Both the position numbers and the translations under genes were made by a program. From Hyphomicrobiales bacterium (lineage in GTDB: Bacteria > Pseudomonadota > Alphaproteobacteria > Rhizobiales > CAJQND01): a stretch of DNA of 64,000 bases. The notes below the pieces were generated by a model. That model worked only from the letters and a program-made list of their open reading frames with translations, was not told the DNA's origin and made no database searches. Within the stretch, counting starts at the first letter, position 1. Each line of letters starts with the position of its first letter. The stretch is taken from the NCBI GenBank assembly GCA_028285595.1, contig JANQOW010000053.1, positions 2,079 through 66,078 on the forward strand. The letters run 5' to 3'. Below, one piece after another: positions 9,726 through 50,386 of the stretch.

Positions 9726-9731
9726 TTTTAT

Positions 9732-10850: not shown

Positions 10851-10856
10851 GCCGCT

Positions 10857-12070: not shown

Positions 12071-12074
<4 letters not shown>
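10857..12074 (+). CDS. yejE: ABC transporter permease YejE
   Basis: 405-aa multi-TM permease with a large periplasmic loop after TM1. It overlaps the yejF start (ATGA). Confidence 0.85.
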
Positions 12075-13699
<1,625 letters not shown>

Positions 13700-15713: not shown

Positions 15714-15789
15714 GCTGAACGCCGTTTGCGGCACGCAACTGCCGCTCTTGCGCCTTTGCAATCGGCTTTCGAGACCCTATTTTTCCCTT

Positions 15790-31609: not shown

Positions 31610-32257
31610 TTAGTGAAGGGTCTCCTGGCTCGCCGATCCTTCAGGATCAGCAACGGGATCGAGGACCGCCACCAGCCGCGTTTCGCCAGTGCCTTCAATC
31701 GGCGGCGAGCGGTGCAGGAGGTTGGCCCCCGACCCTTCGGGCCAGAGGGAACCGCGCAGGAGGATCGGGGATCCCGTGGGCACGGTGTAAATCCGCTGAG
31801 GCGTCCCGGTTTCGGTTGAGAAGCCGTACTGCGTGCCAGTCCCCCGATAGGTGCAGATCAGGCGCGCGGAAACAGCATCTTTATGGAACTTTCGGCAAGC
31901 ATTGCTCGCAACCACGTCCAGGCGCAGCAGCAAATGCTCAACACGCATCAACTCAGCGAAGATATGGGCCAGGGCGGCAATATCATCAATCAACAGAGCC
32001 CGCTCAGCGCAGTCCGGTGTTTTGCATATCTCGCAAATATGAGACGCCGCATCCCGCACGTTTTCAGGCCGCAGGATCAATCGGGCCGACGGCAGATGTT
32101 CCGGCGCCAGCGCATCGATCCAGCTCTGAAAGGTGCGCAACGGTTGGCGAGGCCAGATGGCGGCGGCGCAATCCACACTGTGGATCACCGACAAGCCCTC
32201 AGGCGACTGCGCGACGGCGACCGCAGCTTCGGTGTCCACCTGCCCAACGAGCGTCAT
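31610..32257 (-). CDS. DUF1826 domain-containing protein
   Basis: 215 aa. The segment [24 protein letters not shown] matches my recollection of the DUF1826 signature. ATGA overlap with the stop of the upstream GTPase. Confidence 0.55.
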
Positions 32258-33471
32258 GCGGCCGTCTCAACGCGGCGCCAAGCCGGGAAAGGGTCCGGCA
32301 AGTCTGGCAGATTGTCCATGCCGTATGCCTCATCCTCAGGCACCAGAGCTGCATCCAACCGCGCTTTCAAAGCCGGCCAGTCGATGCCGGCTCCGATGAA
32401 AACAATTTCCTGACGCCGGTCGCCCCACGGTTCCTGCCAGTGAGCGGCCATGTTGGCACGCGCACTGGGGTCATCGGGCCATCGGTCTTTGGGTACTGCG
32501 GCCCACCAGGGCCCTAACGGCTGGACAGAAGACAGAGCACCTGCGAGGGAGTATTCGAGCGCCCAGTCCGGCTGGGAGGAGATCCAGAAATGCCCCTTCG
32601 AGCGGATCACACCCGGCATCGGGCCGTTCACCAGAGCGTGAATCTTCTCTGGATGAAACGGTTGCTGTGCCCGGTAGACGTAACTGGTAACTCCATACTC
32701 CTCTGTCTCCGGCGTATGATCTGCAAAGCCATAGAGCTCTTTGACCCACATGGGGTACCCATGCGCTTTATCGAAGTCGAACAGCCCAGTATCCAGAACG
32801 CGGTCGGCCGGCACGTTCGAATGGTTGGTCTCTATGATCTCCGCATCGGCGTTCAAGCTCCGGATAATCTTGCGCGCGGCATCGACCTGATGAGGCTCGG
32901 CGTCGTCAACCTTGTTCAAGATCACCACATCGGCAAACTCAATCTGATCGGTAAGCAGGTGCACCAGCGTGCGCTCATCTTCCTCGCCCATGGTCTCGCC
33001 GCGATCCTGCAGGAAATCGTGGCTGGAAAAGTCCTTGAGCAGGTTCACCGCGTCTACCACCGTGACCATCGTGTCCAGGCGGGCAACATCCGACAGGCTC
33101 TCCCCGTTCTCATCGCGGAACTCAAAGGTCGCTGCAACGGGCAAGGGCTCTGAAATGCCTGTCGACTCGATTAGCAGGTAGTCAAAGCGCCCCTCGGCGG
33201 CCAGACGCCGAACCTCGGCCAAAAGGTCATCTCTCAGGGTGCAACAGATGCAGCCGTTGGACATCTCTACCAGGGTCTCATCGGTTCGGCTGAGTTCTGT
33301 GTCCGCCCGAACCAGATCGGCATCGATGTTCACTTCCGACATGTCGTTGACAATGACCGCAACGCGGCGCCCTTCCCGGTTATTGAGGACGCGGTTCAAA
33401 AGGGTCGTCTTACCCGCACCGAGAAATCCAGACAGAACGGTGACAGGAAGTCGTTTTTCTGACGTATTCAT
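32254..33471 (-). CDS. zigA: G3E-family (COG0523) metallochaperone GTPase, ZigA/YeiR-like
   Basis: P-loop [12 protein letters not shown], metal-binding [10 protein letters not shown] (CxCC), ESTGISEP and the NKVD motif. The long C-terminal CobW_C-type extension gives 405 aa. Confidence 0.85.
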
Positions 33472-36754: not shown

Positions 36755-36961
36755 TGGGGTTCTCCAGATGCCGCTGTCGTCCATTGGGCTGGAACCGGCG
36801 ACAAAACTTTGTGTGGTTAAGCTCTTGCAGGGCCGTTAGGGTCCTCGGGAAGCGGATAACCTGAACCGACCGGTGACGCAACCTACCCAGGCGATGAGCA
36901 TCCGGCGTGACGCTTGTGCCGGTACATGTAGGCCGTTGCAATCACATTGAGGAACCGAGCG

Positions 36962-37609
36962 ATGAACCACGACCAGCAGCCCCAAGACAAATTCTCAAGA
37001 CTTCACGACGCACTCTGGGAGGCCATCGGCTCCCAGAACGCCAGGTTTCAGGAATTCCCAGTTGAGCAGCCAGAGTTCTCACCGGTTGAAGAAGGCTATT
37101 CCGACGCAAAAGTGGGCGACGATTTTCCCGTCATGAAGCACCTTGACGAGGCGCTTAAGATCGCCGGCGAGCATGGGTTCAAGAAGATCGCAGATGCCTT
37201 TGCGGAGGTCTCAGGCGAATTGCCCTGGTCGCAAAACCCTCGCTACACGGAAGCCAATGGCGGGTTGAACCTCTTGAACGGCTATGCCTATGCGAGCCTT
37301 TCTGGCCCTGAAGGGCCCATCAAGTGCATCGCACCGCGTGGAGGCTTCTACCTGATGGGCCCGGATGTGTTCTATCCAGACCATAACCACGCCCCAAGAG
37401 AGGCATATCTGGTGATGACGCCCGGGGTCGAGTGGCGTTTGGATAAGGGTGATTGGTTCCAGGTCGAGCCGGGTGATGTGATCTACCACTCCCCCTGGCA
37501 AATGCATGCCATGCGTTCAGCGGGCAACCCTGTCTTGGCCTACGCAGTTTGGCTTGAGCCCGGCAATCGCCTTGATATTCAGTGGAGCGAAGACCGCGAA
37601 AGCGCCTAG
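36962..37609 (+). CDS. Cupin protein resembling the DMSP-lyase family (DddL/DddQ-type motif)
   Basis: Cupin metal motifs YPDHNHAPREAYLV and PGDVIYHSPWQMHAMRS in a roughly 215-aa protein. ATG 36962 is preceded by GAGGAA; ORF-track start 36947 is TTG. The family call is tentative. Confidence 0.45.
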   Translation: MNHDQQPQDKFSRLHDALWEAIGSQNARFQEFPVEQPEFSPVEEGYSDAKVGDDFPVMKHLDEALKIAGEHGFKKIADAFAEVSGELPWSQNPRYTEANGGLNLLNGYAYASLSGPEGPIKCIAPRGGFYLMGPDVFYPDHNHAPREAYLVMTPGVEWRLDKGDWFQVEPGDVIYHSPWQMHAMRSAGNPVLAYAVWLEPGNRLDIQWSEDRESA

Positions 37610-37995
37610 GCCGGCGCCGCTGCACTTACATCAATCTCGATCACGAGCGCCGGATCGAACAAGGAAACGATGACGCCCGTGACGGCACAATGCATATGCT
37701 CGCCCAAATGACGGATCCGGGCCTCGCGGCTGAGCGGCAGATTATCGCGATCGGTCAGATGCATCTTGAGCCGCACAAGATTGTCGGTGGTCATGCCGAC
37801 ACCTTCCAGAAAGCCCGCCACGTTCTTCCAGGCTTGATTGATTTGTGCTGCAGGGTCCTCAAGCAGTTCACCGTCCTTGGTCACTCCAATGATGCCGGAA
37901 GAGAAGACCAGGCGCTCAGATGGGCCCACCTCAACCGCGTTATAGTAGAGCCCAATTGGAGAATAAATCTGCTCGGGATCGAATTTTCTAATCAT
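37606..37995 (-). CDS. RidA/YjgF/TdcF family (reactive enamine/imine deaminase)
   Basis: 129 aa; MIRKFDPEQIYSPIGLYYNAVEV...VFSSGIIG...IEIDV is typical of the family. The ATG at 37995 is preceded by GAGGGG, 7 nt after the upstream stop. Confidence 0.85.
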   Translation of the reverse strand: MIRKFDPEQIYSPIGLYYNAVEVGPSERLVFSSGIIGVTKDGELLEDPAAQINQAWKNVAGFLEGVGMTTDNLVRLKMHLTDRDNLPLSREARIRHLGEHMHCAVTGVIVSLFDPALVIEIDVSAAAPA

Positions 37996-38002
37996 GAGCC
38001 CC

Positions 38003-39406
38003 TCACGTCCTGACGGGTGACATGCCTTTAAGTGCCGCATTGAACTCGGCGAGGGACGACATCTCATCCAACCTAAGAACAGCCTGCAGCGTTTGTTCCA
38101 AGTTTTCGTCAGAGATGTCCAGATTCAATGAGGCCGTCTCTCTGAATTTCTCCTCAAACTGGGCGCGCACAAGATCACGACCAGGAGCGCCTGTCCACAG
38201 GCCAACGCTCGCACTGGCCCGCCGGCCATCCTTCATGACCACCTCAACCGTGTCCGGGTCCTGCGGATCAACATTGATCTCAGGTCGCCGCGGTTGTCTG
38301 GTCGACACATCGACCCTCCCCGCGAGAGCCAAAATATCCTCACGCTGAACCGCTGCGTCACTGAAATCGGCAATCCGGTTGGCACCGGTGACCAGCCCGA
38401 GCGCGACGCAATAGGCCGTGCTGAAGAGGGCCTCCGTGCGGTCTTTGGGCACACCAAAAGGCAAGATGGCGAGGTGGAAGTCCGGCAGCGATGCCGAAGC
38501 GCTCGCAACATCGTCTGCAGACTTGATACCCAACTTGCCATGAAGCTCAATCGAACAATCGACGGATCGGTGCGTATAGCCACAGGATGGATAAACCTTG
38601 GCGCCAAGACCGAACTCTACAATAGCCCAGGGATCGCCCAACTTTGCTAGGGCCCCTTCGAAATTGGCTTTCCCTCGCGGCACCAAAAGGGTTCGAAAAC
38701 TGACATCACCGTCGAGCGCGCCCGTATAAGCAGTAGCACCGGACCGCCCCAGGCTGGCCGCCACGAGCCCGGTCTTGGCCGAGAACCCTGCGTGCAGGGG
38801 TTTGGCCGATGTGCCGAACTGGCTGACATAGCCTGAGCCAAGCGATGTGGTCAGCGAAAGCGCAGCCGCCACTGCACGTGAGTCCAACCCCCAAAGCCTG
38901 CAAACCGCAGCAGTGGCGCCGAAACTGTCCAGCGTGCTCGTCGTGTGCCAGCCAAGATTGTAATGGCCCATATTGACCGCTTCACCGAGACGGAAGATCA
39001 CCTCAAGTCCGACCAGATACGCGTCCAACAGGGCCATACCCGGCACATCCTCCCCAAGCTGATGAGAGGCTGCCAAAACGGCCGGCACCAATACGGCACT
39101 TGCATGATCATTGGCTTGGAGAGTGTAGTCGTCCAGATCATAAGCATGGGCGGCCGCTCCATTCGCCATCGCGGCCCACGGCGGCGGCAGACTGTGTTCC
39201 GTGCCATACACCGGCGCCGTGCCGGCACCCCAATCCTGTGCCGCTGCTATGGCCGCCTGGGGGGCAACCGCATTCGTTCCAAGAAGCATGCATCCGATCG
39301 TATCCAAAAACGCGCACTTTGCGCGTTCGATCGCGCCTGCGGGGTGCTGCACAGAGCTCACACTCGTAACGAACTTTGCAAGCGTGTCGATCGCCACTTC
39401 AGACAT
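38003..39406 (-). CDS. MmgE/PrpD family protein (copy 1)
   Basis: 467 aa; LDTIGCMLLG, AHAYDLDD, GWHTTST and KPLHAG are family hallmarks. Start MSEVAIDTLAKF at 39406. Confidence 0.85.
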   Translation of the reverse strand: MSEVAIDTLAKFVTSVSSVQHPAGAIERAKCAFLDTIGCMLLGTNAVAPQAAIAAAQDWGAGTAPVYGTEHSLPPPWAAMANGAAAHAYDLDDYTLQANDHASAVLVPAVLAASHQLGEDVPGMALLDAYLVGLEVIFRLGEAVNMGHYNLGWHTTSTLDSFGATAAVCRLWGLDSRAVAAALSLTTSLGSGYVSQFGTSAKPLHAGFSAKTGLVAASLGRSGATAYTGALDGDVSFRTLLVPRGKANFEGALAKLGDPWAIVEFGLGAKVYPSCGYTHRSVDCSIELHGKLGIKSADDVASASASLPDFHLAILPFGVPKDRTEALFSTAYCVALGLVTGANRIADFSDAAVQREDILALAGRVDVSTRQPRRPEINVDPQDPDTVEVVMKDGRRASASVGLWTGAPGRDLVRAQFEEKFRETASLNLDISDENLEQTLQAVLRLDEMSSLAEFNAALKGMSPVRT

Positions 39407-39420
39407 AACGGCTCTGCACC

Positions 39421-41460
39421 TCACAAAACACGGCAAAGCCGGTTGGCTTCAAGCAGTGCGGCGTGGATGTTGCGCTGGGCAACAGCATCGCCAATGCGGT
39501 AGAGCTGGTACGACCCTTCCGTATTCTCGCCCTCCGGCTGCGGTTCCAACTGCACGAGCGCTTCAACATCGAGATCACCGAGGTTTCTGGATCCTGCAGA
39601 CAGGTCGTGAAACGGCCCATCGGCGGGAACAGTGCAGGTTTCAACGATAACTTGATCGAACCGCCGTTCCACAATGGTTCGCGAAAAGTCGTTCCACAAG
39701 CTGGCAACCAGCAAATTGCCGTCGCGTCGAACCCCCTTAAGGCGGTGGTTGGGCGTTAAGGTCGCGCCGTTATTGTAGAGGTTCCGCAGGTAGACCGGGA
39801 TGTTCTGGCCACCAATGTTCAGTCCCACTTGCAGATCGGGGGTCACAATCTCAACGTTCGCCCCGTTGGAGGCAAGCCAGTCGGCGGTTGCAACGGCTCC
39901 ATGGTTGCCGGTCTCATCATAGACAAGGACATTTTCACCAGGGCCCGTCTCGCCGGACAAAACCTCCCAGGTTGAGACGGTGAGCTCTCCACCGCCATTC
40001 TCCAATTGAGCATCCGGCACACCTCCGGTGGCAACCACCACCACATCGGTCTGCTCATCCAGCGCTTCAGGCCCTTCCACATAGCGGTTCAGGTGGACCG
40101 CTACGCCCAACACCTCCAGTTCTTGCGCCAACCAGTCGGCAATGCCGATCATATCCTTCCGCCAACCGGCCCGCGCAGCCAGCACAATCTGCCCACCCAG
40201 CCTGGCACCTGCCTCATAGAGGGTGACCTTGTGCCCTCTCAACGCGGCCACCCGGGCAGCTTCCATGCCACCTGGTCCCCCGCCGATAACAACCACCTTC
40301 TTTTGCGCATCGGCCTTCGCAATCTCATGAGGCAACCAACCGTCCCGGCCGGTTGAGACATTGTGGACGCAAAGCGTCTCTCCACCGGCGTAAATACGGT
40401 CGATGCAGTAACCAGCCCCGACGCAGGGCCGAATGCGGGCTTCCTCGCCGCGCATCAATTTGGACACAAGGTGGGGGTCGGCCATATGAGGTCGCGTGAG
40501 GCCCGCCATATCCACGTACCCCTCGGCTATGGCCCAATCTGCCGTGGCCGGATCAGACAGACGTGCGGCTTGGAACACAGGCAAAGCGCTCGCCTCTTTA
40601 ACTCTGCGGGCCAGTTCCACATATGGAGCGGCCTTGTAGGCCATGCCTGGGAACGTCTCGGCAAGCCCGTGGAGCGAACCGCCGTAGGCGCCGTTGATGT
40701 TGAGAAAATCCATTGAGCCGTGTGCACCGATCATCCGAGCAAGTTCGACCCCCTCCTCTGACGGCATGCCGTTCTCATTGGTTTCATCAGCCGCGAAACG
40801 GACGCCGACAATAAAGTCGTCACCAACGCGCGCGCGAACCGCCTCCATGACCTCAATCAGAAACCGCGCCCTGTTCTCCAATTCGCCCCCGTAATCATCC
40901 GTTCGCGCATTTGACAGGGGAGAGAGATATTGCCCCAAGAGATGAGTGGTCGCCAAAATCTCGCATCCATCCAAGCCGCCCTCACGACACCTCAACGCGG
41001 CTTCGGCAAAATCCTTGACGATGCGGGCGATGTCGTGTGTCGACATTTCGCGGGGCACGGAGTGATGAGCCGGGTCGCGGATAACGCTTGGCCCGATGGT
41101 TGGGAGCCAGTCTCCCGCAGCCCACCCGGTGCGCCGGCCCATGTGTGTGATCTGGCACATGAGACCTGCGCCATGTTGGTGGACCCGCTGGGCGAATTCA
41201 CGGAAGACCGGGATAATGCTGTCATCGCCCACATAGATTTGGCCGTAGATGGATCCGGAATCCCTGCTGATGTTGGATGACCCACCAAACATGGTCAGTC
41301 CGATGCCACCCTTTGCCTTCTCCTCATGGTAGGCCTGATAGCGCTCACCAGGTTTGCCGGCCTCCGCATAGCCGGGCGCATGCGCAGTTGAGACCACGCG
41401 GTTCTTAAAGGTGCGCCCGCGGATTGTGATTGGAGACAACAGGTTTTTGTAAGCGCTCAT
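39421..41460 (-). CDS. FMN (OYE-like TIM barrel) plus FAD/NAD(P)-binding two-domain oxidoreductase, N-methylproline demethylase (StcD)-like
   Basis: 679 aa. An N-terminal OYE barrel (FKNRVVSTAH, ERYQAYHEEKAKGGIGLTM, DDYGG) is followed by the Cys cluster RPCVGAGYC...LCVHN. The second domain carries VVVIGGGPGGMEAARVAALRGHKVTLYE. Confidence 0.8.
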   Translation of the reverse strand: MSAYKNLLSPITIRGRTFKNRVVSTAHAPGYAEAGKPGERYQAYHEEKAKGGIGLTMFGGSSNISRDSGSIYGQIYVGDDSIIPVFREFAQRVHQHGAGLMCQITHMGRRTGWAAGDWLPTIGPSVIRDPAHHSVPREMSTHDIARIVKDFAEAALRCREGGLDGCEILATTHLLGQYLSPLSNARTDDYGGELENRARFLIEVMEAVRARVGDDFIVGVRFAADETNENGMPSEEGVELARMIGAHGSMDFLNINGAYGGSLHGLAETFPGMAYKAAPYVELARRVKEASALPVFQAARLSDPATADWAIAEGYVDMAGLTRPHMADPHLVSKLMRGEEARIRPCVGAGYCIDRIYAGGETLCVHNVSTGRDGWLPHEIAKADAQKKVVVIGGGPGGMEAARVAALRGHKVTLYEAGARLGGQIVLAARAGWRKDMIGIADWLAQELEVLGVAVHLNRYVEGPEALDEQTDVVVVATGGVPDAQLENGGGELTVSTWEVLSGETGPGENVLVYDETGNHGAVATADWLASNGANVEIVTPDLQVGLNIGGQNIPVYLRNLYNNGATLTPNHRLKGVRRDGNLLVASLWNDFSRTIVERRFDQVIVETCTVPADGPFHDLSAGSRNLGDLDVEALVQLEPQPEGENTEGSYQLYRIGDAVAQRNIHAALLEANRLCRVL

Positions 41461-42749
41461 TTAGATCTCCCAGCATTGCTCCACACATCGCGGGCGCGAA
41501 AAACAACATCCGCAAAAGGCAAAAACCAGGGACTTCCCCGATGCCACCATCGATTGGGAAACCCTGTCTTAGTGAACGCCGTCTCTCCGTCGCGGTCCCC
41601 GGCCATCAACAGGGCTGCTTTGTGGCCCAGATAGGGTGCCATGGCATTGCCGCTGCCGGAGTAACCCATGGCATGCCAAACGCCATCTTCTTTGCCGACA
41701 TGGGGCAGGAAGTCGAAGGTGAACCCGGTTCTGCCGCGCCAACTATGAGAGAATCCGACGCCTTTCAGTTCGGGAAAGATCTGCGTCATCAACCCTCGCA
41801 GCTCAGATTGTGCAATAGACTCAGGGGCATTGAACAGAGCCGCACGCCCACCGAACACAAGCCGTGTCCCATCTGGTGATGCCCGGTAATAGCAATGTCG
41901 TTCCCGGCTCTCCGCCACCATGCGCCCTCCTGGCAGGAGATCTTTGATCCGGTTCTCGCCGAGAGGCTCGGTGACAACAATGAAGCTCGGGATCGGAACA
42001 ATGCGCCGCTTCAGTGTCGAAAGGTGAGATGGGGTATAGCCGTTTGTGGCCACCAACACCTCGCCGGCGCGGACCCTTCCGCGGGGCGTATCGATGACAA
42101 CTCCCGCATCTGCCTGCTGCACACTTGTGACCGGCGTGTGCCCTTGGACCAGTGCGCCGGCGCGCTGGGCAGCGTTCAGAATACCTTGCACCCATTTGGC
42201 CGGATTCAGTCCACCATGCCTTGGAAAAACGATGCCGCCCGAATAGAGATCGCTGTTGACCTCGTCGCGCTGACGGGATTTCGGCACCATCTCCGCTTCA
42301 AGCGGGATCAACGATTGTAGGCGCTCAAGCCCCCGTGCCGAACTCTCATATTCCGATGGATGCCAGAGGCCGCGAAATCTTCCGGTCTCCGCGAAATCAC
42401 AGTCAATCTCTTCTTCGGCGATGAGGTCCTTGACGAAGTTGGTGGCGTTCAGATGTGCTTCTGTCAGCAGATCAAGGGCCGTCGCCTTACCGAACCGTGC
42501 CTCCATGTCGTCGATAGACATGCGATGCCCCCCACCGATCATCCCGCCATTGCGGGAACTTGCACCGATGCCAGGCGCTTCGGCGTCGAGAACCAGAACC
42601 GCTTTACCTTTCTTTGCCAATGTCCGCGCAGCGGAGAGGCCCGTCAGGCCGGCCCCAACGATCACAAAGTCAATGTCCTGCGGCAACGGGGCCTCTTTGG
42701 GCGACGTTGGCTCCCCTGCATCGTCCCACCAGTAGGGTTCAAATTTCAT
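41457..42749 (-). CDS. FAD-dependent oxidoreductase (DAO family; amine/amino-acid oxidase or dehydrogenase type)
   Basis: 430 aa with the dinucleotide fold DFVIVGAGLTGLSAARTLAKKGKAVLVLD. ATGA overlap with the downstream gene. Start MKFEPYWWDD at 42749 is verified in frame. Confidence 0.85.
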   Translation of the reverse strand: MKFEPYWWDDAGEPTSPKEAPLPQDIDFVIVGAGLTGLSAARTLAKKGKAVLVLDAEAPGIGASSRNGGMIGGGHRMSIDDMEARFGKATALDLLTEAHLNATNFVKDLIAEEEIDCDFAETGRFRGLWHPSEYESSARGLERLQSLIPLEAEMVPKSRQRDEVNSDLYSGGIVFPRHGGLNPAKWVQGILNAAQRAGALVQGHTPVTSVQQADAGVVIDTPRGRVRAGEVLVATNGYTPSHLSTLKRRIVPIPSFIVVTEPLGENRIKDLLPGGRMVAESRERHCYYRASPDGTRLVFGGRAALFNAPESIAQSELRGLMTQIFPELKGVGFSHSWRGRTGFTFDFLPHVGKEDGVWHAMGYSGSGNAMAPYLGHKAALLMAGDRDGETAFTKTGFPNRWWHRGSPWFLPFADVVFRARDVWSNAGRSK

Positions 42750-44262
42750 CGTTGCCGATTTCACGTGAGCGGCGCTCCACAAATGCGTTCAAAGCTTCCG
42801 CGCGATCTGCTTCCAGGTTTGGTGCTTCGTAGGCCGCCAACATTTCCTTCCACTTGGCGTTGGCGCGGATAGCGGTATCGGGCGAACCATCAGCCTCCCA
42901 GAACTCATAGGGTCTCCAGTCTGACAGAATGGGAGCGTGAAAGGCCGTCTGATACCGGGCCATTGTGTGCGAAGACCCCAGGAAATGCCCGCCGGGGCCA
43001 ACTTCTTCAATGGCGGCAATCGCTTCCTCTGCATCGCTGAAGTCAATACGGCCACTGAGAGCCCCCATCATCCCGATCATTTCCGCATCAATGATCGTCT
43101 TTTCAAAACCTGTGGTAAGGCCGGCCTCCATCCAACCGTGCGCATGATAGACGCAATGCGCCCCGCACAGCACACCAGCCCACAAGGAGAACATTGTTTC
43201 ATATGCGCCCTGGGCGTCCGGGGCATTGGAGCTGGAGCCCAGCATGAGGCGTTGGGGAAGCTTATAGCGGCGGGCCATCTGACCGTTCGACAATGTACCG
43301 GTGACGGTTTCCGGCACACCCATGGCCGGGGCGCCGGACTTCATGTCGATCGGGGTGGTCAACACACCATAAAAGCAAGGAGCACCGGCGCGCACCATCT
43401 GAAGAAAGGCAATGACACCAATGGCCTCGGCATTACATTGGATGAGACTTCCAGATAGCGTTATCGGCGACATCGCTCCGGCAAAGGCGACGGGCGAAAT
43501 GACGTTCGCCTGGCCGTTCGCAGCCATTTCCATCGCACCTTCCAGCAGCGGTTCATCTACAACCAAGGGGGAGTTCACGGAGATACTGGCATGCAGTCGG
43601 GGCTCGGCTGCGAGTTCATCACGGGTTATGCCGTGGGCAAGTGCGGTCATCTCCAGACTATCGCGCACACGCGTTTCGCCGATCGCATAGACACGGGTCA
43701 CCTTGTCGGACAGCGTCTGCCACGAGCGCATGCTTGTCAGATGACGGGTGTTGACGGGAGTGTCGATCGGCTCGACCGGATGGCCGGAATGGAAGGCACA
43801 CGTTGGGATCATTTGGTTGAGTTTGACCAGATCCTCGAAGTCCTTTTGCGTTCCGGGGCGGCGGCCGCGATCCATGTCCAGCACGTTCGGCGCAGAAGAC
43901 GCTGAACCGAAGTGAATATCGCCGCACCCAAAGTGGAGATCGTGAGCACGATTGCGCGCCCGCATGGTGAATTCTGACGGCGCCAAAGCCAGGAAGTGTT
44001 CCACCACTTCTGGCGGAAAACGGGCGATGCCCGTCTCCCGATCAACCGCGCAGCCATTGGCCTCCAGGATAGGCCAGCTCCTCTCCGCCATAAACTTCAG
44101 CCCAATGCGCTCAAGAACCTGAAGCGAGAGTGCGTGAACTCTTTCTTCTTCTTCTGCGGTAAGCAAGTCGATCGGCGCATAGGGCCGCTGAATGGGCTTG
44201 AACGTCGGCGCCTCCGCAGGGGCTACCTCTTTGGTTCTGCGCCCTTGCCGTCGGGCAGACAT
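42739..44262 (-). CDS. MttB (trimethylamine methyltransferase) superfamily protein, non-pyrrolysine type (copy 1)
   Basis: About 507-aa uninterrupted ORF with an Arg/Lys-rich N-terminus, then LTAEEEERVHALSLQVLERIGLKF, and the C-terminus GPGGHFLGSSHTMARY. ATG 44262 is preceded by GGAGG. Confidence 0.85.
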   Translation of the reverse strand: MSARRQGRRTKEVAPAEAPTFKPIQRPYAPIDLLTAEEEERVHALSLQVLERIGLKFMAERSWPILEANGCAVDRETGIARFPPEVVEHFLALAPSEFTMRARNRAHDLHFGCGDIHFGSASSAPNVLDMDRGRRPGTQKDFEDLVKLNQMIPTCAFHSGHPVEPIDTPVNTRHLTSMRSWQTLSDKVTRVYAIGETRVRDSLEMTALAHGITRDELAAEPRLHASISVNSPLVVDEPLLEGAMEMAANGQANVISPVAFAGAMSPITLSGSLIQCNAEAIGVIAFLQMVRAGAPCFYGVLTTPIDMKSGAPAMGVPETVTGTLSNGQMARRYKLPQRLMLGSSSNAPDAQGAYETMFSLWAGVLCGAHCVYHAHGWMEAGLTTGFEKTIIDAEMIGMMGALSGRIDFSDAEEAIAAIEEVGPGGHFLGSSHTMARYQTAFHAPILSDWRPYEFWEADGSPDTAIRANAKWKEMLAAYEAPNLEADRAEALNAFVERRSREIGNDEI

Positions 44263-44325: not shown

Positions 44326-45279
44326 TTGTATAATTTCAGATATAACAGTTTCGCATACCTTGCTGTGAGATTTGCCGACTTACAAACGTTTATCGATGTC
44401 ATAGAGCATGGCGGCATGACCCAGGCGGCCGCCATTAACGGCGTCTCACAACCAGGGATCAGCAGGTCAATACGAGATCTTGAGACGCGTATGCGCGCGA
44501 CGTTGTTGCGCCGCACCGGGCGCGGCGTGGAGTTGACCCCTGCTGGTATGGAGTTTCTCGCCTTTGCAAAATCCAGCCTAAGCGCGCTCGAAGACGCCAA
44601 ATCAAGGATAATGGAGGTTTCCGGCAACATTCCCGAGAGGTTGCACATTGCCATTCCGGACCGGCTTGGGTCTGTGGTGTACCCGGTCCTCTATCGCCAA
44701 TTCATGCTGGAGCTTCCCGAAGTTGCGGTTGCCGCCACAGAGACCCTAACGGCGGATATGATTGACGGCATTAACGCAGGGCGCGTGGACTTGTCAGTCT
44801 CCTATCTGCCGACGATCCCTGGGGCCTACGGTGGCGAACCCGCCTTTCGCGAGAGCCTCTATTTGGTGGAGAGAAAGACCAAAACGGTCAGCAAGGACGT
44901 CACCGTCTCCCTTGCCGATGTCGCTAAGCAACCTTTTCTTCTGAACCACCAGGGCAGCGCCTACCATCGCCTCATAGATGCCGCGTTCTCAGCAGCCGGG
45001 CACAAGCTGATCGTCGCCAGAGAGTTTGAAACAGCAGAGAGCTTGCTTGCATTTGCATGCGAAGGTGAAGGCGTGACGATCCTTCCTTACAGCAACTTTC
45101 GCACGGAGGCGCAGCGCGGCGACGTTATAGGGCGGCTCATAACTGACCCGGGGATTGAGCGAAATGTCTACGTTCACGCCGGGCGACACTTGGACAACCG
45201 CACCGCAAACCTCGCCCGCGGCATCATTCTGCGCTGTCTCAATGAGATCGCCGAAAGCGTCCGCTGGTCGCCCATGTAA
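44326..45279 (+). CDS. LysR family transcriptional regulator (divergent from the MttB operon)
   Basis: HTH LQTFIDVIEHGGMTQAAAINGVSQPGISRSIRDLE plus a LysR substrate-binding domain. The start is uncertain: 44326 is TTG, and an in-frame GTG at 44365 gives a more typical N-terminus. Confidence 0.85.
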   Translation: MYNFRYNSFAYLAVRFADLQTFIDVIEHGGMTQAAAINGVSQPGISRSIRDLETRMRATLLRRTGRGVELTPAGMEFLAFAKSSLSALEDAKSRIMEVSGNIPERLHIAIPDRLGSVVYPVLYRQFMLELPEVAVAATETLTADMIDGINAGRVDLSVSYLPTIPGAYGGEPAFRESLYLVERKTKTVSKDVTVSLADVAKQPFLLNHQGSAYHRLIDAAFSAAGHKLIVAREFETAESLLAFACEGEGVTILPYSNFRTEAQRGDVIGRLITDPGIERNVYVHAGRHLDNRTANLARGIILRCLNEIAESVRWSPM

Positions 45280-45376: not shown

Positions 45377-46384
45377 ATGGCTCGCAACACGCAGGTTGTC
45401 CTTAGAAACAGGCCGGGCACCCGGCTCGCCGAGACCGATGTTGAATTGGTTGAGCGCGATATACCGGAACTTGGAGAAAATGAGTTTCTTGTTGAGAGCA
45501 AATATGTGTCGATCGACTTTGCCATGCGGGGCTGGATGGCAGCGGGCCGGTCCTATGTCCCCACCCTTGATCTCGGCGCGGTGGTGCGCGGCTGTTCGGC
45601 AGGAACCGTTATCTCATCGCATAACGAGAGCTTTCCTGAGGGCGCTCAGGTTTGCGGCATGCTCGGCGTTCAAAGCCATGCCATCAGTGACGGAACAGGT
45701 GTCTACACAGTTAACCCGGAGCAAGCTTCGTTAAAACGTTGGGCGGGCGGCCTAGGGCCGACCACTGCCCTAACCGCCTATCTCGGGCTTCTCCATGCGG
45801 GCCGACCAGAACAGGACGACACCGTATTCGTCTCCGGGGCCACCGGGGCCGTTGGCTCATTGGTCGGGCAAATGGCAAAGCTCAAGAAATGCCGTGCAGT
45901 GGGCACGGCCGGCAACGCGGCCAAATGTGATTTTGTTGTGAGCGAGTACGGATTCGATGCGTGCGTCGATTACACAGCAGACACTCTTGCAGATCAGATT
46001 GCGGAGGCGTGCCCGGACCGCATTGACGTGCTTTTTGAAAATGTGGGCGGTGCCCTGTTTGATACCAGCCTGTTGCAGATGAACACGTTCGGGAGAGTTG
46101 TCCTGTGCGGCTTCACATCGGACCGCACCGCGCCGGAGCCTTATGGAGTGAAGAACCTCCGCGCGGTGCTGATGGAGCGGCTCACCATGTTGGGGTTCAT
46201 CTTGTTTGAGTATGCCGACGGGTATCAAACCGCGGCGGATGATATCGGGGCCTGGTTTGCTGACGGAAAACTGACATTGCAAGGGGATGAAGAAGTGTAT
46301 CCGGGGGGCTTGCCGGCGTTCGCCTCCGCACTGAACCGGGTGCTGGATGGACAAAACACCGGGAAGGTCATTTTGGAGATTTAG
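45377..46384 (+). CDS. NADP-dependent oxidoreductase, medium-chain dehydrogenase/reductase family (YncB/CurA/alkenal reductase-like)
   Basis: 335 aa with the cofactor motif VSGATGAVGSLVGQMAK and no catalytic Zn ligands. Confidence 0.8.
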   Translation: MARNTQVVLRNRPGTRLAETDVELVERDIPELGENEFLVESKYVSIDFAMRGWMAAGRSYVPTLDLGAVVRGCSAGTVISSHNESFPEGAQVCGMLGVQSHAISDGTGVYTVNPEQASLKRWAGGLGPTTALTAYLGLLHAGRPEQDDTVFVSGATGAVGSLVGQMAKLKKCRAVGTAGNAAKCDFVVSEYGFDACVDYTADTLADQIAEACPDRIDVLFENVGGALFDTSLLQMNTFGRVVLCGFTSDRTAPEPYGVKNLRAVLMERLTMLGFILFEYADGYQTAADDIGAWFADGKLTLQGDEEVYPGGLPAFASALNRVLDGQNTGKVILEI

Positions 46385-47298
46385 GACTCTCGCAGCCACC
46401 TGGCCCGGTCGCTGTTCTCAACAAAAGCCTGTTTGATCAGGGCGATGGTGTGACGCACCAATGGGTTTGCCGCAGTGGAGCTGCCAGCAACCGATATGCC
46501 GCGGGTAATGGTAGGCTCAATGATCTTGCGAGCGACGAGTTCGCCATTTTCGACCTCTTCCCAAAGATTGCTGTAAGGCAGAATGGTGAGCCCTTCCCCT
46601 TGAGCGGCAAAAGACACATGGGCATGGATCGTTTCCAGCTCGCGCGCCACAATTGGCTCGTGGCCGGCCTTGCGCATGCTGTCTTCGATCAGCCCTCTAT
46701 AGTGTGCGGGCCTTGACTGCAGCAAAAGAGGATAGGAGGCGACCTCTGCCATCGTCATTGCGGTCGCGTCTGTGCCCAAAAGGGCGCTTGAGCCGAAAGC
46801 GTAGAGTTCTTCATGGCCCAGTTCCTCTGAGGCTAGGTTGGGCGGCTCAGGCGGCGTGTAAAACACACCCACATCCATCTCACGGGCCGCAAGCATGTCT
46901 TGGGTCTGGATGTTCAGGTTTTCAAAGACATGGATCGACGCGTTGGGAAACGCGTTTGAAAAACTCGTGACCAGCGGAGCCATGATCAGACGTCCGACCC
47001 GCATCGGTATGGACACATTTAATGCACCGACCTCGGTGCCACGGAGTTGTTCGGCGCACTCCAGCAACTGATCGTACTCCAAGATCACTGAAGATGCCTG
47101 CTGCAGAAACACCTCTCCGGCCTTGGAAGGCTTTACGCCCCGCCCTGTTCGCTCAAACAGCTTGACCCCATGCGTCTCCTCAAGGTCCCGCACGATCCGG
47201 CTGAGAGATGCTTGGGCAACACCCAAACGAGACGCGGCCAGCGAAATGGATCCCGCCTGCTCAACGGCCAACAACATCTGCAGGTGCCTGATCTTCAT
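46381..47298 (-). CDS. LysR family transcriptional regulator (divergent from the second MttB gene)
   Basis: HTH MKIRHLQMLLAVEQAGSISLAASRLGVAQASLSRIVRDLE. The C-terminal region (TILPYSN...RW) is paralogous to the regulator at 44326-45279. Confidence 0.9.
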   Translation of the reverse strand: MKIRHLQMLLAVEQAGSISLAASRLGVAQASLSRIVRDLEETHGVKLFERTGRGVKPSKAGEVFLQQASSVILEYDQLLECAEQLRGTEVGALNVSIPMRVGRLIMAPLVTSFSNAFPNASIHVFENLNIQTQDMLAAREMDVGVFYTPPEPPNLASEELGHEELYAFGSSALLGTDATAMTMAEVASYPLLLQSRPAHYRGLIEDSMRKAGHEPIVARELETIHAHVSFAAQGEGLTILPYSNLWEEVENGELVARKIIEPTITRGISVAGSSTAANPLVRHTIALIKQAFVENSDRARWLRES

Positions 47299-47439
47299 GT
47301 TGCCTCATCATGCTCAACCGGCCTGATATTACAATAATGTTATAGCTGATGCTCTGTTTTTGTGGCTTGTTCAAACCCTGCCGGCGCTATTCGATGGTCG
47401 TGGGAATTTCGGCCTACATGCCCCTTTAAGAGGAGTGGA

Positions 47440-48981
47440 ATGGGACCTGCGATCCGATCTAAACGCACCCGGCGCCGGCGCGACGCTCTTGCAGACCGTG
47501 AGCACAGCGCTCCGGTGGAAATGCCGTCAAGGCACGGTCTTCCGCCGGCTGAAGTTCTGACCGCAGAGCAAATCGAAGATGTTCATGCTTACTCAACGCG
47601 CCTTCTTGAGGAGGTGGGCATTGAGTTTATGCTCCCAGCCGCCTGGGATATCCTGGAAGCGAACGGTGCAAAGGTCGATCGCGACAGCGGCATGGTCAAA
47701 ATGGATCGTGGGCTGGTTGAGCACTGGGTCTCTAAGGCTCCGAGCACGTTTGACTTAAAGGCGCGCGAGAGCTCTCGCGATATCAGCTTTGGCGGAAAAG
47801 AGATTGCCTATGGTTCGGTCGCCAGCGCGCCGAATGCCTTGGATGCGGAACGCAGACGCACCGTAGGCAGTCAGTCCAGTTTCCGTGACTTGCTCAAGTT
47901 AAGCCACACCCTCAGCACCTGTTCCTTCTTCTCAGGTTATCCCGTCGAGCCGATAGACCTTCCGGTAAACACGCGCCATCTGGATTGCTACGCTGATCTC
48001 CTCACGCTGACGGACAAGCCGTTCAGGATTTATGCAATCGGTGAGACCCGGGTGACAGACGCGCTCGATATGGTTTGCCTTGGCCACGGGATCAACCGCG
48101 ACGAACTAAGAGAAGCACCGCGCCTCATCACAAACCTCAACGTAAACTCGCCTCTACGCGTTGATGCACCTTTGCTCGAGGGCGCAATGGAGATGGCCAG
48201 AAACGGTCAGATCGTCGTCGTCACGCCAGTGGCGTTTTCCGGAGCCATGACACCGATCACTCTGTCCGGAACCCTGATTCAGTTTAATGCAGAGTGCCTT
48301 GCCACGATCGCGTTCCTCCAGATGGTCCGTGCCGGTGCGCCGGTTATGTATGGCACGGTGTTCGCGAACGTGGACATGAAGTCCGGCGCACCGATCCTCG
48401 GGTCCGCTGAAATGAGCACAGGCATGATCGCCACCGGCCAACTCGCGCGGCGCTATGGCATTCCCATGCGGGGCTTTCTTGGATCATCCTCCAAGGCGCC
48501 TGATGCTCAAGCTGCCTATGAGACAATGATCTGCTTGTGGGCCAACGTCTTGGCTGGCGTGCACTGCGTGTTCCACGCTCACGGCCTTTTGGATACCGGC
48601 TTGATTGCCTCGTACGAAAAAGCCGTCCTGGATTCTGACCTGATTGGAATGATGCAGGTTGTCTCTCCAACCGTTGACTTTTCAGATCTCGACGAAGCGT
48701 TCGATGCCATTAAGACCGTCGGTCCCGGCGGACACTTCCTGGGAGCAGACCACACCATGGCGCGGTACAAGACGGCGTTCCACACTCCGCTCCTTTCCGA
48801 TTGGCGGGCATACGAGTTTTGGGAAAGCGACGGCGCAAAAGACACCGCCGTTCGAGCGACCGAAAAGTGGAAGGAGTTGCTTGATAGCTATGTGCCGCCG
48901 GATCTTCCCGCCGGCCGAGCTGAGGCCCTTGAGGAATTCGTCATCCGGCGCAAGCAGGAAATCGGAGACATGGACATATAA
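47440..48981 (+). CDS. MttB superfamily protein, non-pyrrolysine type (copy 2)
   Basis: Collinear with copy 1, roughly 60% identity by eye, sharing blocks such as YAIGETRV, PLLEGAMEMA, FLQMVRAGAP, DMKSGAP and GPGGHFLG. ATG 47440 is preceded by AAGAGGAG; ORF-track start 47362 is rejected. Confidence 0.85.
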   Translation: MGPAIRSKRTRRRRDALADREHSAPVEMPSRHGLPPAEVLTAEQIEDVHAYSTRLLEEVGIEFMLPAAWDILEANGAKVDRDSGMVKMDRGLVEHWVSKAPSTFDLKARESSRDISFGGKEIAYGSVASAPNALDAERRRTVGSQSSFRDLLKLSHTLSTCSFFSGYPVEPIDLPVNTRHLDCYADLLTLTDKPFRIYAIGETRVTDALDMVCLGHGINRDELREAPRLITNLNVNSPLRVDAPLLEGAMEMARNGQIVVVTPVAFSGAMTPITLSGTLIQFNAECLATIAFLQMVRAGAPVMYGTVFANVDMKSGAPILGSAEMSTGMIATGQLARRYGIPMRGFLGSSSKAPDAQAAYETMICLWANVLAGVHCVFHAHGLLDTGLIASYEKAVLDSDLIGMMQVVSPTVDFSDLDEAFDAIKTVGPGGHFLGADHTMARYKTAFHTPLLSDWRAYEFWESDGAKDTAVRATEKWKELLDSYVPPDLPAGRAEALEEFVIRRKQEIGDMDI

Positions 48982-48982
48982 G

Positions 48983-50386
48983 ATGGCATTGGCCTTGGAC
49001 GCAGAACCGATTGGCCAGACGGCAATCCGCACATTGGCGGCGTTTATCGCCAATGCACCGCGCAGGTACGGACCGGTGGCGCGTGAGCGGTCGCGGTTTG
49101 CCATTCTGGATACGGTCGGATGTATGATTTTCGGTCAATCGAGCCCGGAAGCTCAAGCTGCGTTCGCATCGGTTTCCGGTTGGGGGACAGGTCCTGCAAT
49201 GGTGGTTGGCAAAGACGTTGGATTGCCGCCACCTTGGGCTGCTTTCGTGAACGCCACCGCGGCACATGCGCTTGACTATGATGATTGGGACGATCCATCC
49301 CTGGTCCACACCAGCGCGGTGTTGCTACCTGCCATACTCGCCGTTGCAACGGAGCGGGAAGCAGATGGCGCAGACGTTTTAGACGCACATATTGTTGGCG
49401 TTGAGACGCTGCTGCGGATCGGAGAGGCCGTTAACCCAAGCCACTACTGGAACGGATGGCACGCAACATCAACGATCGGTGCCATTGGCGCAGCGGCTGC
49501 CGTGTCACGGATGTTGGCGCTTGATGAAGATCAGACAGCAAATGCCCTGTCCATCGCAACCAGCATGGCCGGTGGCTATGTCAGCCAATTTGGCACCATG
49601 ACAAAGCCCATGCATGCAGGTTTTGCCGCCAAAGCAGGAGTTTTCGCCGCTGCTTTGGCCAAAGCAGGCACCAGTGCCCAAGAAGCCGCGCTCGATGGCC
49701 CGGTGAGCTTCAGAAGCACAACCGCCAACGTGGATCAGGAGGCATTTTTCACAGCTTTCGGAAAGCTGGGAACACCGTGGGCGATCGAAGAGTATGGGAT
49801 GCACATCAAGCTTTACCCCTCTTGCGGCGGCACGCACCGGGTTATCGAAGCCGCGCTCATGCTAAGAAAAGACAACCAAATCGATCCCAGCCGGATTCGG
49901 GATATCGAAGTGAATGTGCCTGAGTTCCTCATCGAGCTTCTCCCCTACAAAGTCCCGAACACCCGCCCGGAAGCACTCTTCAGTTTGCCTTATTGCGCAG
50001 CGGCAGCATTGATGTGGGGAAAAGTGGGGATCGACGAGTTCAGCGATGACGCAATCAACGATGGCACCGTCCGCGCTATATCAGCCCGGGTTCGCCTAAC
50101 AACACGCGCGTTCAACTATCAGACCCACCTCTTTGTGAAGGGCAATTTCGACGTCGTCACTGTTACCACCGAAGACGGACGCACGTTCAGCGCCTCGATC
50201 GACATTCCGTACGGCGCACCGCCGAGATTTGCAGATCAAGAGACCGTTGAGCGGAAATTCATGGATTGCGCGCGCCGGGGTCTGCCGGAAGATCAAGCCA
50301 CACAGATCATGGAGTTGCTGCGCGCACCTGCAGCCCAGTGGGCTCCCTCAGATCTCTGTAACCGCATGACACCTCTTCAAAGCTAA
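48983..50386 (+). CDS. MmgE/PrpD family protein (copy 2)
   Basis: 467 aa. The ATG lies 1 nt after the mttB-2 stop (TAA G ATG), in frame with ORF-track 48659. It shares LDTVGCM, AHALDYDD, GWHATST and KPMHAG with copy 1. Confidence 0.85.
   Translation: MALALDAEPIGQTAIRTLAAFIANAPRRYGPVARERSRFAILDTVGCMIFGQSSPEAQAAFASVSGWGTGPAMVVGKDVGLPPPWAAFVNATAAHALDYDDWDDPSLVHTSAVLLPAILAVATEREADGADVLDAHIVGVETLLRIGEAVNPSHYWNGWHATSTIGAIGAAAAVSRMLALDEDQTANALSIATSMAGGYVSQFGTMTKPMHAGFAAKAGVFAAALAKAGTSAQEAALDGPVSFRSTTANVDQEAFFTAFGKLGTPWAIEEYGMHIKLYPSCGGTHRVIEAALMLRKDNQIDPSRIRDIEVNVPEFLIELLPYKVPNTRPEALFSLPYCAAAALMWGKVGIDEFSDDAINDGTVRAISARVRLTTRAFNYQTHLFVKGNFDVVTVTTEDGRTFSASIDIPYGAPPRFADQETVERKFMDCARRGLPEDQATQIMELLRAPAAQWAPSDLCNRMTPLQS

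Follow-up and report, generated by a model that had tools for sequence, protein, structure and literature searches.

Glycine betaine is demethylated aerobically in Ruegeria pomeroyi and Phaeobacter inhibens by the MtgB-MtgC-MtgD system (PMC12478193; bioRxiv 10.64898/2025.12.19.695462), whose MtgC and MtgD components are shared and encoded elsewhere in roseobacter genomes (PMC12478193); the extra PF06253 paralogs of both species are known and explicitly uncharacterized (PMC12478193; bioRxiv 10.64898/2025.12.19.695462). In the Hpb pathway of proline-betaine catabolism, a racemase (HpbD), a Rieske demethylase (HpbB1C1), an StcD-type flavin demethylase (HpbA) and a LysR-type regulator (HpbR) act together (PMC3950512). 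The locus described here recalls both systems. It lies in a 64,000-nucleotide stretch (the window) of contig JANQOW010000053.1 from a Hyphomicrobiales bacterium, and consists of a LysR-type regulator gene (LysR1) and a divergent operon encoding, in order, a non-pyrrolysine methyltransferase of the MttB superfamily (MttB1), a DAO-family amine oxidase or dehydrogenase, a flavoprotein of the DgcA/StcD/HpbA type, a protein of the MmgE/PrpD family (PrpD1) and a Rid-like protein.

Like the MtgB-MtgC-MtgD system (PMC12478193), the locus presents a non-pyrrolysine PF06253 enzyme in an aerobic marine proteobacterium, with corrinoid and pterin modules presumably elsewhere, in the setting of genomes that carry several uncharacterized PF06253 paralogs, and the window here also has a DUF1638 gene. 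It differs in that MttB1 and its paralog MttB2 share only about 34-35% identity with the structurally defined MtgB, and in joining the methyltransferase to a flavoprotein of the DgcA/StcD type and a PrpD-fold protein in one operon, a combination undescribed for MtgB. With the Hpb pathway it shares LysR regulation, two successive demethylases of which the second is a flavoenzyme, and a putative stereo-inverting enzyme, the flavoprotein being homologous to StcD, HpbA and DgcA; here, however, the first demethylase is a B12-type MttB rather than a Rieske oxygenase, and the putative epimerase has the MmgE/PrpD fold where that of the Hpb pathway has the enolase-superfamily fold. With slightly better than even confidence, and on the strength of sequence comparisons, we read the operon as a LysR-controlled unit for the breakdown of a quaternary or poly-N-methylated amine that bears a carboxylate and is not glycine betaine. 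What is new is a conserved context for an orphan MttB clade, with an unprecedented PrpD-fold partner; aerobic MttB demethylation and flavin demethylases are known. In the library of papers searched, nothing relevant was found on MttB or "trimethylamine methyltransferase" together with PrpD or MmgE. A preliminary description of this DNA, made from its letters alone, knew of no described pathway with this gene set.

The cluster is real and beyond chance, because the order MttB-(DAO)-flavoprotein-PrpD, divergent from LysR, recurs on many unrelated contigs with differing flanks. Loci were gathered in three ways (MttB homologs with context look-ups, a genome scan with a PrpD alignment, and a metagenome scan), and the window proteins were mapped onto all 127 of them, cited below by L numbers; the counts that follow are for those loci whose PrpD shares 57% identity or more with PrpD1. 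The flavoprotein gene stands directly upstream of PrpD in 14 of the 15 loci having enough upstream sequence, and MttB was found in 10 of 11 informative loci. Nine loci with the cluster have a divergent LysR ortholog (39-71% identical to LysR1). A DAO gene sits between MttB and the flavoprotein in about two-thirds (8 of 12 informative loci), and a Rid-like homolog follows PrpD in L004 and L005 only. The PrpD-fold protein is the most faithful MttB partner. The conserved and selected unit is therefore LysR, MttB, flavoprotein and PrpD, with DAO a frequent accessory and Rid lineage-specific; of the five-gene set that the preliminary description took as a unit, the core stood and the DAO and Rid genes did not. 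Its central proposal, a non-pyrrolysine MttB coupled to an N-demethylating-type flavoprotein under LysR, is supported as a conserved catabolic unit, and the neighborhood comparison went against the case that it had named as refuting, a combination not conserved in related genomes. The core unit occurs in at least ten independent genomes or contigs, spanning four alphaproteobacterial orders and one gammaproteobacterial metagenome-assembled genome (MAG). Among the Alphaproteobacteria it was found in MAGs of the Rhodobacterales, Hyphomicrobiales, Rhodospirillales and Sneathiellales. Most carriers are uncultured MAGs, flanking genes are unrelated between loci, and one module adjoins recombinase and integrase genes. 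Annotated plasmids held no ortholog of MttB1 above 42% identity and none of PrpD1 above 37%, so no curated annotation could be transferred. Looking up the proteins of the window themselves likewise yielded no protein name that was informative.

A second module, LysR2-MttB2-PrpD2, lies about 3 kb from the first in the same window, with LysR2 divergent from the MttB2-PrpD2 pair and the PrpD2 ATG 1 nt past the MttB2 stop; the preliminary description had noted more than one MttB copy and left this module unreported. Relatives of module 2 occur in L020, L127 and L018, and in L018 and L127 they include the flavoprotein. In L127, genes for an SBP_bac_5 solute-binding protein (SBP5), an enone reductase and LysR are divergent from MttB2-flavoprotein-PrpD2; L018 has a Dpp-type ATP-binding cassette (ABC) transporter, LysR and the series MttB2-flavoprotein-PrpD2-cupin-CoA-transferase. 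Because the pairing has been kept through duplication, it provides the strongest internal evidence that MttB and PrpD work together. The paralogous module, with its SBP5, enone reductase and CoA-transferase, would handle a related compound.

Within the operon, the end of MttB1 and the start of the DAO gene have 11 nt in common (ATGAAATTTGA, read from the window sequence), DAO and flavoprotein genes share an ATGA, and gaps of 14 nt and 7 nt separate the flavoprotein stop from the PrpD1 ATG and the PrpD1 stop from the Rid ATG. The five minus-strand open reading frames (ORFs), these junctions and the divergence from the LysR gene, all reported earlier, held when checked, as did the five family assignments, with the exception in detail that the protein called RidA is not canonical. 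Families were assigned with Pfam profiles, and subfamily equivalogs with NCBIfam models and their bit-score cutoffs. The true start of LysR1 is probably a few codons downstream of the called start. Promoter and terminator scans found nothing exceeding shuffled background. Coordinates are collected in Table 1.

Table 1. Genes of the two modules and other features of the window; positions are counted from its first nucleotide.
Feature	Position	Strand	Basis and remarks
MttB1, non-pyrrolysine MttB-superfamily methyltransferase, 507 aa	42739-44262	-	PF06253; first gene of the operon
DAO-family FAD amine oxidase/dehydrogenase, 430 aa	41457-42749	-	PF01266; accessory gene
DgcA/StcD/HpbA-type two-domain FMN + FAD N-demethylating flavoprotein (predicted), 679 aa	39421-41460	-	core gene
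PrpD1, MmgE/PrpD protein, IDS-epimerase/B. subtilis "IRG1" subgroup, 467 aa	38003-39406	-	core gene
Rid/YjgF-superfamily protein without the RidA arginine, 129 aa	37606-37995	-	lineage-specific accessory gene
LysR1, LysR-type regulator divergent from the operon	44326-45279	+	Pfam HTH_1 and LysR_substrate; start codon uncertain
LysR2, module-2 regulator	46381-47298	-	Pfam; 31% identical to LysR1
MttB2, paralogous non-pyrrolysine MttB, 514 aa from ATG	47437-48981	+	PF06253, 556 bits; 58% identical to MttB1
PrpD2, paralogous PrpD-like protein	48983-50386	+	Pfam; 43% identical to PrpD1
SBP_bac_5 (Dpp/opine/nickel-chelate type) solute-binding protein, after PrpD2	50421-52070	+	PF00496, 219 bits
MDR-family enone (CurA-like) reductase, between the two modules	45377-46384	+	ADH_N_2 and ADH_zinc_N
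Family III CoA-transferase, convergent with module 2	52172-53371	-	PF02515, 342 bits
DddQ-like cupin, convergent with the operon	36947-37609	+	PF16867, 131 bits; possible accessory gene
DUF1638 gene, after an asparaginase II gene	15703-16419	+	

MttB1 matches PF06253 at 552 bits across profile positions 4-500 of 500, a full-length match to the MTTB TIM barrel, and matches structures 4YYC, 2QNE/9YCE and 7XCL, with 34% identity to Desulfitobacterium hafniense MtgB and 36% to Sinorhizobium meliloti 4YYC. Its ORF has 507 sense codons and zero in-frame stops, the pyrrolysine position (Pyl334) of Methanosarcina MttB aligns with Ser, and the pyrrolysine-type model TIGR02369 gives 292 bits against a cutoff of 525, so the earlier call of a non-pyrrolysine enzyme was right. 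The accompanying remark that the characterized enzymes of this type work in anaerobes is outdated, since MtgB-MtgC-MtgD is used aerobically (PMC12478193; bioRxiv 10.64898/2025.12.19.695462); because aerobic MttB-type demethylation was published in 2025, the idea of a hybrid route is also less surprising. In MtgB, as a 2026 study describes, the trimethylammonium group makes cation-pi contacts with Y97 and F356, and the carboxylate is bound by R312 and H348; R312 is conserved in all members that use acidic quaternary amines, glycine betaine use probably requires at least these four residues, and the changes Y97A and F356L raise the Km several-hundred-fold (PMC13080624). In an alignment of MttB1, MttB2 and 21 relatives, the equivalents of R312 and H348 are conserved, the one exception being Gln for His in the relative P0111, and the Y97 position is Ser or Ala and the F356 position Gly or Ala throughout (Ser and Gly in MttB1, Ala and Gly in MttB2). 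Measured against the binding motif of the D. hafniense MtgB group, both window proteins have the Arg and His and are missing the aromatic pair. With the Arg/His pair kept and Y97 and F356 replaced by small residues, the members of the clade seem suited to methyl transfer from an acidic quaternary amine and to have a pocket larger than that of MtgB. Eubacterium limosum MtpB, MtcB, MtyB and MthB are similar in being non-pyrrolysine enzymes of acidic quaternary amines that keep the R312 equivalent and have no MtgB aromatic pair; they differ in that their cognate corrinoid proteins are co-encoded, that their hosts are strict anaerobes, and that their demethylated products are not degraded further, whereas the MttB1 product would pass on to oxidative demethylation.

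The same residues bear on a glycine-betaine route, in which MttB1 would be of the MtgB type and the flavoprotein of the DgcA type, the DAO would convert sarcosine to glycine, and the PrpD-like protein would be incidental. Three demethylating enzymes would then match the three methyl groups; the best context-identified relative of the flavoprotein is indeed a DgcA (see below); MttB orthologs 71-72% identical adjoin GbdR-like, soxBDAG and dimethylglycine dehydrogenase (DMGDH) genes in L002 and L125; and MtgB paralogs serve aerobic use (PMC12478193; bioRxiv 10.64898/2025.12.19.695462). We nevertheless consider this route unlikely. The replacement of Y97 and F356 holds for the whole clade at positions where substitution costs MtgB so much affinity, and the similarity of MttB1 to MtgB is low. 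The DAO scores weakly on sarcosine-oxidase models and is missing from a third of the clusters, the conserved PrpD partner would have no role, and the transporters that accompany the clusters are of the SBP_bac_5 (opine, chelate or dipeptide) type, not the betaine type, which supports a substrate other than glycine betaine.

The flavoprotein combines an Oxidored_FMN domain (184 bits) with a C-terminal FAD/NAD (pyridine-nucleotide) fold by Pfam, and its architecture and full-length similarity place it in the DgcA/StcD/HpbA group. It is 50.6% identical, end to end, to a gene on an Azospirillum oryzae plasmid (locus L042) that is taken to be DgcA because of its context, gbcA-gbcB-gbdR-(flavoprotein relative)-dgcB-etfAB-proVW; 49.6% identical to a Paracoccus gene whose neighbors are electron-transfer flavoprotein (ETF) genes, proC and an FAD oxidase gene; and 46% identical to an annotated N-methylproline demethylase. 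The earlier label of StcD-like demethylase is therefore fair. Alignment with DgcA shows near-identity across the FMN barrel and a CVGAGYC...C motif common to both; the CxxAxxC Fe-S motif, entertained as an oddity of this flavoprotein, was dropped as a clade trait, DgcA having the same motif. Compared with the GbcAB-DgcAB-SoxBDAG route represented by the Azospirillum locus, the window operon has no GbcAB and neither the DgcB Fe-S partner nor ETF genes; it has an MttB for the first step and adds a PrpD-like gene.

PrpD1 matches PF03972 (MmgE_PrpD_N) at 171 bits and PF19305 (MmgE_PrpD_C) at 87 bits. Its PDB matches by phmmer are 7bra, the Bacillus subtilis "IRG1" (5e-51), iminodisuccinate (IDS) epimerase 2hp0 (2e-42) and cis-aconitate decarboxylase (CAD; 1e-29); the B. 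subtilis protein is presumably YxeQ, of the S-(2-succino)cysteine operon. Two assignments were ruled out. PrpD1 is not an ordinary 2-methylcitrate dehydratase, an identity that the preliminary description had named, together with unrelated substrates for the flavoproteins, as fatal to its proposal: the equivalog models give 37 bits against a cutoff of 950 (NF042438), 27 against 575 (NF006943) and 24 against 458 (TIGR02330). Nor is it a CAD/IRG1 decarboxylase, since CAD is only the third-best structural relative and, although D93, H103, H159, K207 and K272 of the human enzyme are kept, PrpD1 has Tyr at Thr97 and Cys at His277 (in KVYPSC). Chen et al. in 2019 are said to have listed eight active-site residues for human CAD, Thr97 and His277 among them.

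Residues H87, D90, H101, H148/Y149, H154, K202 and K270 do not vary among PrpD1, PrpD2 and two orthologs, and IDS epimerase and B. subtilis IRG1 show the same motifs when aligned with them; the motifs KxxPSC and GWHxTS are common to PrpD1 and IDS epimerase, distant as the relationship is. The characterized MmgE/PrpD members (dehydratase, decarboxylase, IDS epimerase and methylsuccinate isomerase) all use 2/3-substituted succinates, and their shared chemistry is protonation or deprotonation at C2, with conserved His/Glu/His/His/Lys/Lys ligands and a His/Tyr pair, according to a 2025 study (PMC12290011). PrpD1 fits this general family pattern, its match to the methylsuccinate isomerase numbering being drawn from motif and position. 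It is probably active and probably binds a 1,4-dicarboxylate, and by these comparisons it is nearer to the epimerase than to the dehydratase PrpD. With IDS epimerase (2HP0) and the (S)-(R)-methylsuccinate isomerase (PMC12290011) it has in common the fold, the dicarboxylate-coordinating His/Asp(Glu)/His/His/Lys/Lys set and the His/Tyr pair. It differs in that B. subtilis "IRG1" is its nearest relative and in its partners, which are MttB and a demethylase in place of a C-N lyase or an itaconate CoA-transferase cluster.

The dicarboxylate preference also bears on the possibility that the substrate is a cyclic amino-acid betaine (proline, hydroxyproline or pipecolate), with MttB in place of the Rieske enzyme, the flavoprotein as StcD/HpbA and PrpD as a non-homologous replacement of the HpbD 2-epimerase; the DAO would then oxidize (hydroxy)proline or pipecolate, and a Rid or dihydrodipicolinate synthase (DHDPS)-type enzyme would process the cyclic imine. 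The Hpb pathway has the same logic of racemase, two demethylases and LysR regulator (PMC3950512), and MtpB is a precedent for proline-betaine demethylation. The similarity of the flavoprotein to the annotated N-methylproline demethylase fits, as does the pipecolate oxidase AmaA as top NCBIfam model for the DAO; a DHDPS-family gene stands directly upstream of MttB in L125, and an enolase-superfamily gene adjoins the L127 cluster. Proline-type betaines are monocarboxylates, however, while characterized MmgE/PrpD enzymes need a 1,4-dicarboxylate and the binding residues are intact in PrpD1 and PrpD2. The AmaA score is 160 against a cutoff of 600, the Rid-like protein is without the RidA arginine, and no betaine-type (ProX/OpuAC or BCCT) transporter is associated with the clusters. 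We therefore regard this possibility as rather unlikely. The DHDPS-family gene of L125 (7057-7989, in a Hyphomicrobiales MAG whose cluster adjoins soxBDAG) belongs to a family that takes in the pyrroline-4-hydroxy-2-carboxylate deaminase of the hydroxyproline pathway.

Under the reading that we favor, catabolism of an acidic amine other than glycine betaine, MttB1 would move one N-methyl group to a corrinoid protein encoded elsewhere (of the MtgC/MtgD type) and thence to tetrahydrofolate, as its family and residues suggest. The flavoprotein, given its similarity to DgcA/StcD-type enzymes, would then remove a further N-methyl group by oxidation, with release of formaldehyde. In those lineages that have it, the DAO would oxidize the remaining secondary or primary amine to an imine, hydrolyzed to an oxo-acid, a step with which the Rid-like protein might assist. 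PrpD would act as an epimerase by C2 deprotonation and enolate chemistry, as in IDS epimerase and methylsuccinate isomerase, and would supply the stereoisomer that the demethylases accept, so that both stereoisomers could enter the pathway, the role that HpbD has in proline-betaine catabolism. Because characterized MmgE/PrpD enzymes bind 2/3-substituted succinates and the residues concerned are intact here, the substrate or an intermediate probably bears an aspartate-like (2-ammonio-succinate) skeleton, which is favored for the same reason over a (hydroxy)proline betaine. This more specific proposal, an aspartate-like skeleton with PrpD as epimerase, is tentative and carries about half the confidence of the general one. 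The hybrid betaine route of the preliminary description accordingly survives in its conserved unit of MttB and N-demethylating-type flavoprotein, while the (hydroxy)proline betaines fit less well with the preference of PrpD for dicarboxylates. Homarine catabolism was ruled out, because the products of homABCDER, among them a TgnAB-like flavin pair, a peptidase and an aldehyde dehydrogenase, belong to other families.

Several findings weigh against this reading or parts of it. Neither the window nor any of the orthologous loci has genes for the DgcB Fe-S subunit or for ETF. L125 has DHDPS-MttB-DAO-flavoprotein with no PrpD, L003 and L126 have a close MttB ortholog alone with PrpD absent, and in L012 a 61%-identical PrpD stands alone beside SecA. 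The soxBDAG and DMGDH genes adjoining the clusters of L002 and L125 point to glycine-betaine-type intermediates, and the MtgB motif comes from work on D. hafniense MtgB and close homologs of it, with R. pomeroyi MtgB1/2 outside the alignment. The reaction of PrpD1 could be an elimination or a decarboxylation instead of an epimerization, and we know of no natural aspartate-type betaine. Genes for a corrinoid protein, MtgD or RamA were found neither in the window cluster nor in the related loci examined, so that B12 dependence is assumed by homology. No B12-binding gene appeared among the larger window ORFs scanned, and a DUF1638 or corrinoid-related gene was looked for beside related clusters and not found. 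The DUF1638 family, present in the window at a distance from the operon, is one that work on the aerobic MtgBCD system connects with reductive reactivation of its corrinoid protein (PMC12478193).

The lack of a corrinoid partner encoded nearby would also suit an explanation outside methylated amines, by which the MttB paralog does something else or the genes lie together without serving one pathway. The distant PrpD relatives might be cited to the same effect: those 40-50% identical and without MttB, examined for hints of a substrate, stand in heterogeneous contexts (a major facilitator superfamily transporter with a thiamine pyrophosphate enzyme, a short-chain dehydrogenase/reductase, housekeeping genes). 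This explanation is very improbable in view of translational coupling and repeated co-inheritance across orders, the linkage of two independent families with N-demethylation chemistry, and the conservation of residues that bind the acidic group of quaternary amines.

A further alternative keeps the methylated substrate and gives the partners other roles: PrpD, as a dehydratase or lyase, would make an alpha,beta-unsaturated acid, the flavoprotein would be an enoate reductase, and MttB would demethylate the product, as in a series from carnitine through crotonobetaine to gamma-butyrobetaine, with the CoA-transferase, cupin and enone reductase joining the same chemistry. The solved relatives of the flavoprotein are 2,4-dienoyl-CoA reductase (FadH), 2-naphthoyl-CoA reductase and trimethylamine dehydrogenase, of which the two CoA reductases are the best; PrpD-PrpD-flavoprotein triads without MttB exist in L095, L104, L105 and L110; and the surroundings of the clusters repeatedly include CaiB/DddD-like CoA-transferases, DddQ-like cupins and an enone reductase of the CurA kind. 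The full-length identity of 46-50% to DgcA/StcD-type enzymes, with shared motifs, is nevertheless far above the similarity to FadH, the flavoproteins of the triads are just 32-34% identical to that of the window, and PrpD1 lies on the epimerase side of its family, so that we think this alternative quite unlikely. The triads themselves, on sediment or soil contigs, consist of a PrpD-PrpD tandem followed by a two-domain flavoprotein of the old yellow enzyme (OYE)/FAD kind, and suggest a wider functional link between PrpD-fold proteins and the OYE/FAD flavoprotein family.

Marine Alphaproteobacteria, roseobacters included, have up to seven MttB paralogs, with a substrate assigned only for the glycine betaine enzyme, and the role of the remaining paralogs matters for marine nitrogen, one-carbon and vitamin B12 cycling. 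One paralog clade now has a defined context, with a regulator, the next demethylase and an enzyme that handles stereochemistry or dicarboxylates, which makes its substrate directly testable. A sixth activity context would be added for the sparsely characterized MmgE/PrpD family, DddQ-like cupins may find an explanation here, and a new betaine, if that is the substrate, would point to an overlooked plankton metabolite. A bolder version of the proposal, which we hold doubtful, is that LysR-MttB-(DgcA-like)-PrpD modules constitute an unrecognized route for succinate-skeleton marine betaines and N-methyl amino acids. In such a route, a new epimerase or lyase activity of the PrpD fold would be an obligatory partner of B12 demethylation, and the modules would travel with DddQ-like cupins and DddD/CaiB-like CoA-transferases that act on the same family of compounds, not on dimethylsulfoniopropionate (DMSP).

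Of the accessory proteins of the operon, the DAO matches PF01266 at 200 bits; after AmaA, its other top model is an aminophosphonate oxidoreductase, likewise far under cutoff. It is 61.5% identical to a Ti-plasmid gene whose neighbors encode a polyamine-type ABC transporter, an aldehyde dehydrogenase and an aminotransferase, with no MttB. The Rid-like protein matches PF01042 (Ribonuc_L-PSP) at 46 bits, has weak PDB matches (1e-5), and scores 31 against 106 bits on TIGR00004 and 23 against 222 bits on NF008490. In RidA, Arg105 of the "PAR" motif binds the carboxylate of the 2-imino acid; the aligned position here is Ala/Val. Thus, of the earlier RidA label, membership in the Rid/YjgF superfamily stands and canonical identity does not, and an imine-deaminase role for the protein is doubtful on these alignments.

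The stop codons of the cupin and Rid genes overlap (CCTAGG, 37606-37609). The cupin is distant from the solved DddQ (1e-12, 51 bits), with an HxHxxxExY cupin motif in its translation. DddQ-like cupins show poor activity on DMSP. Further PF16867 cupins lie near the clusters in L004 (5303-5965), L018 (11414-12052, inside the operon), L002 (11573-12148) and L021 (in both after MttB) and L010, and the native substrate of this recurring cupin may be tied to the pathway of the operon rather than to DMSP. Family III CoA-transferases occur in the window, in L018 (12307-13398, after the cupin) and in L014 (1480-3948), the last being an 822-residue two-domain protein of DddD-like architecture whose gene adjoins the LysR gene. 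The module-2 SBP5 has DppA, AapF and AgaA as best PDB matches, and an SBP5 gene is also found beside the cluster in L013, L018, L020 and L127. The enone reductase reaches 289 bits on the CurA model (cutoff 440) and recurs beside the module-2 LysR in L020 (1042-2046, 87% identical) and L127 (3829-4836, 45%). Together, the cupins, CoA-transferases, SBP_bac_5 proteins and enone reductase suggest chemistry on an onium-carboxylate or dicarboxylate skeleton. The module-2 SBP5 gene has no adjacent permease genes; its partner could be an Opp/Dpp-type ABC transporter encoded at 6037-13699 (+), where two SBP_bac_5 genes, two permease genes and a fused double ATPase gene were found. The window also encodes a CobW/COG0523 metallochaperone (32254-33471, -) and a DehI-family haloacid dehalogenase (56718-57599, +), with no link to the cluster established.

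Some clusters show variations of gene content. A Sneathiellales MAG (L014, 10001-12951) has two PrpD-family genes in tandem after MttB-DAO-flavoprotein. One lineage has a Flavodoxin_2/FMN-reductase gene separating MttB from DAO (L124, 9549-10313; L048, 5890-6654), and in it folE2, for the type-2 GTP cyclohydrolase I of folate synthesis, follows PrpD (L124, 15500-16603; L048, 11835-12944). In L001 (2120-8824), and likewise in L007, the orthologous cluster adjoins a further operon that includes a distant MttB paralog (28% identical) and also encodes an MlrC-like peptidase, an SRPBCC protein, an Amdase-family protein (racemase/decarboxylase-type) and a DMGDH-like demethylase. This neighboring operon is another case of an MttB paralog paired with an isomerase-type enzyme and an oxidative demethylase.

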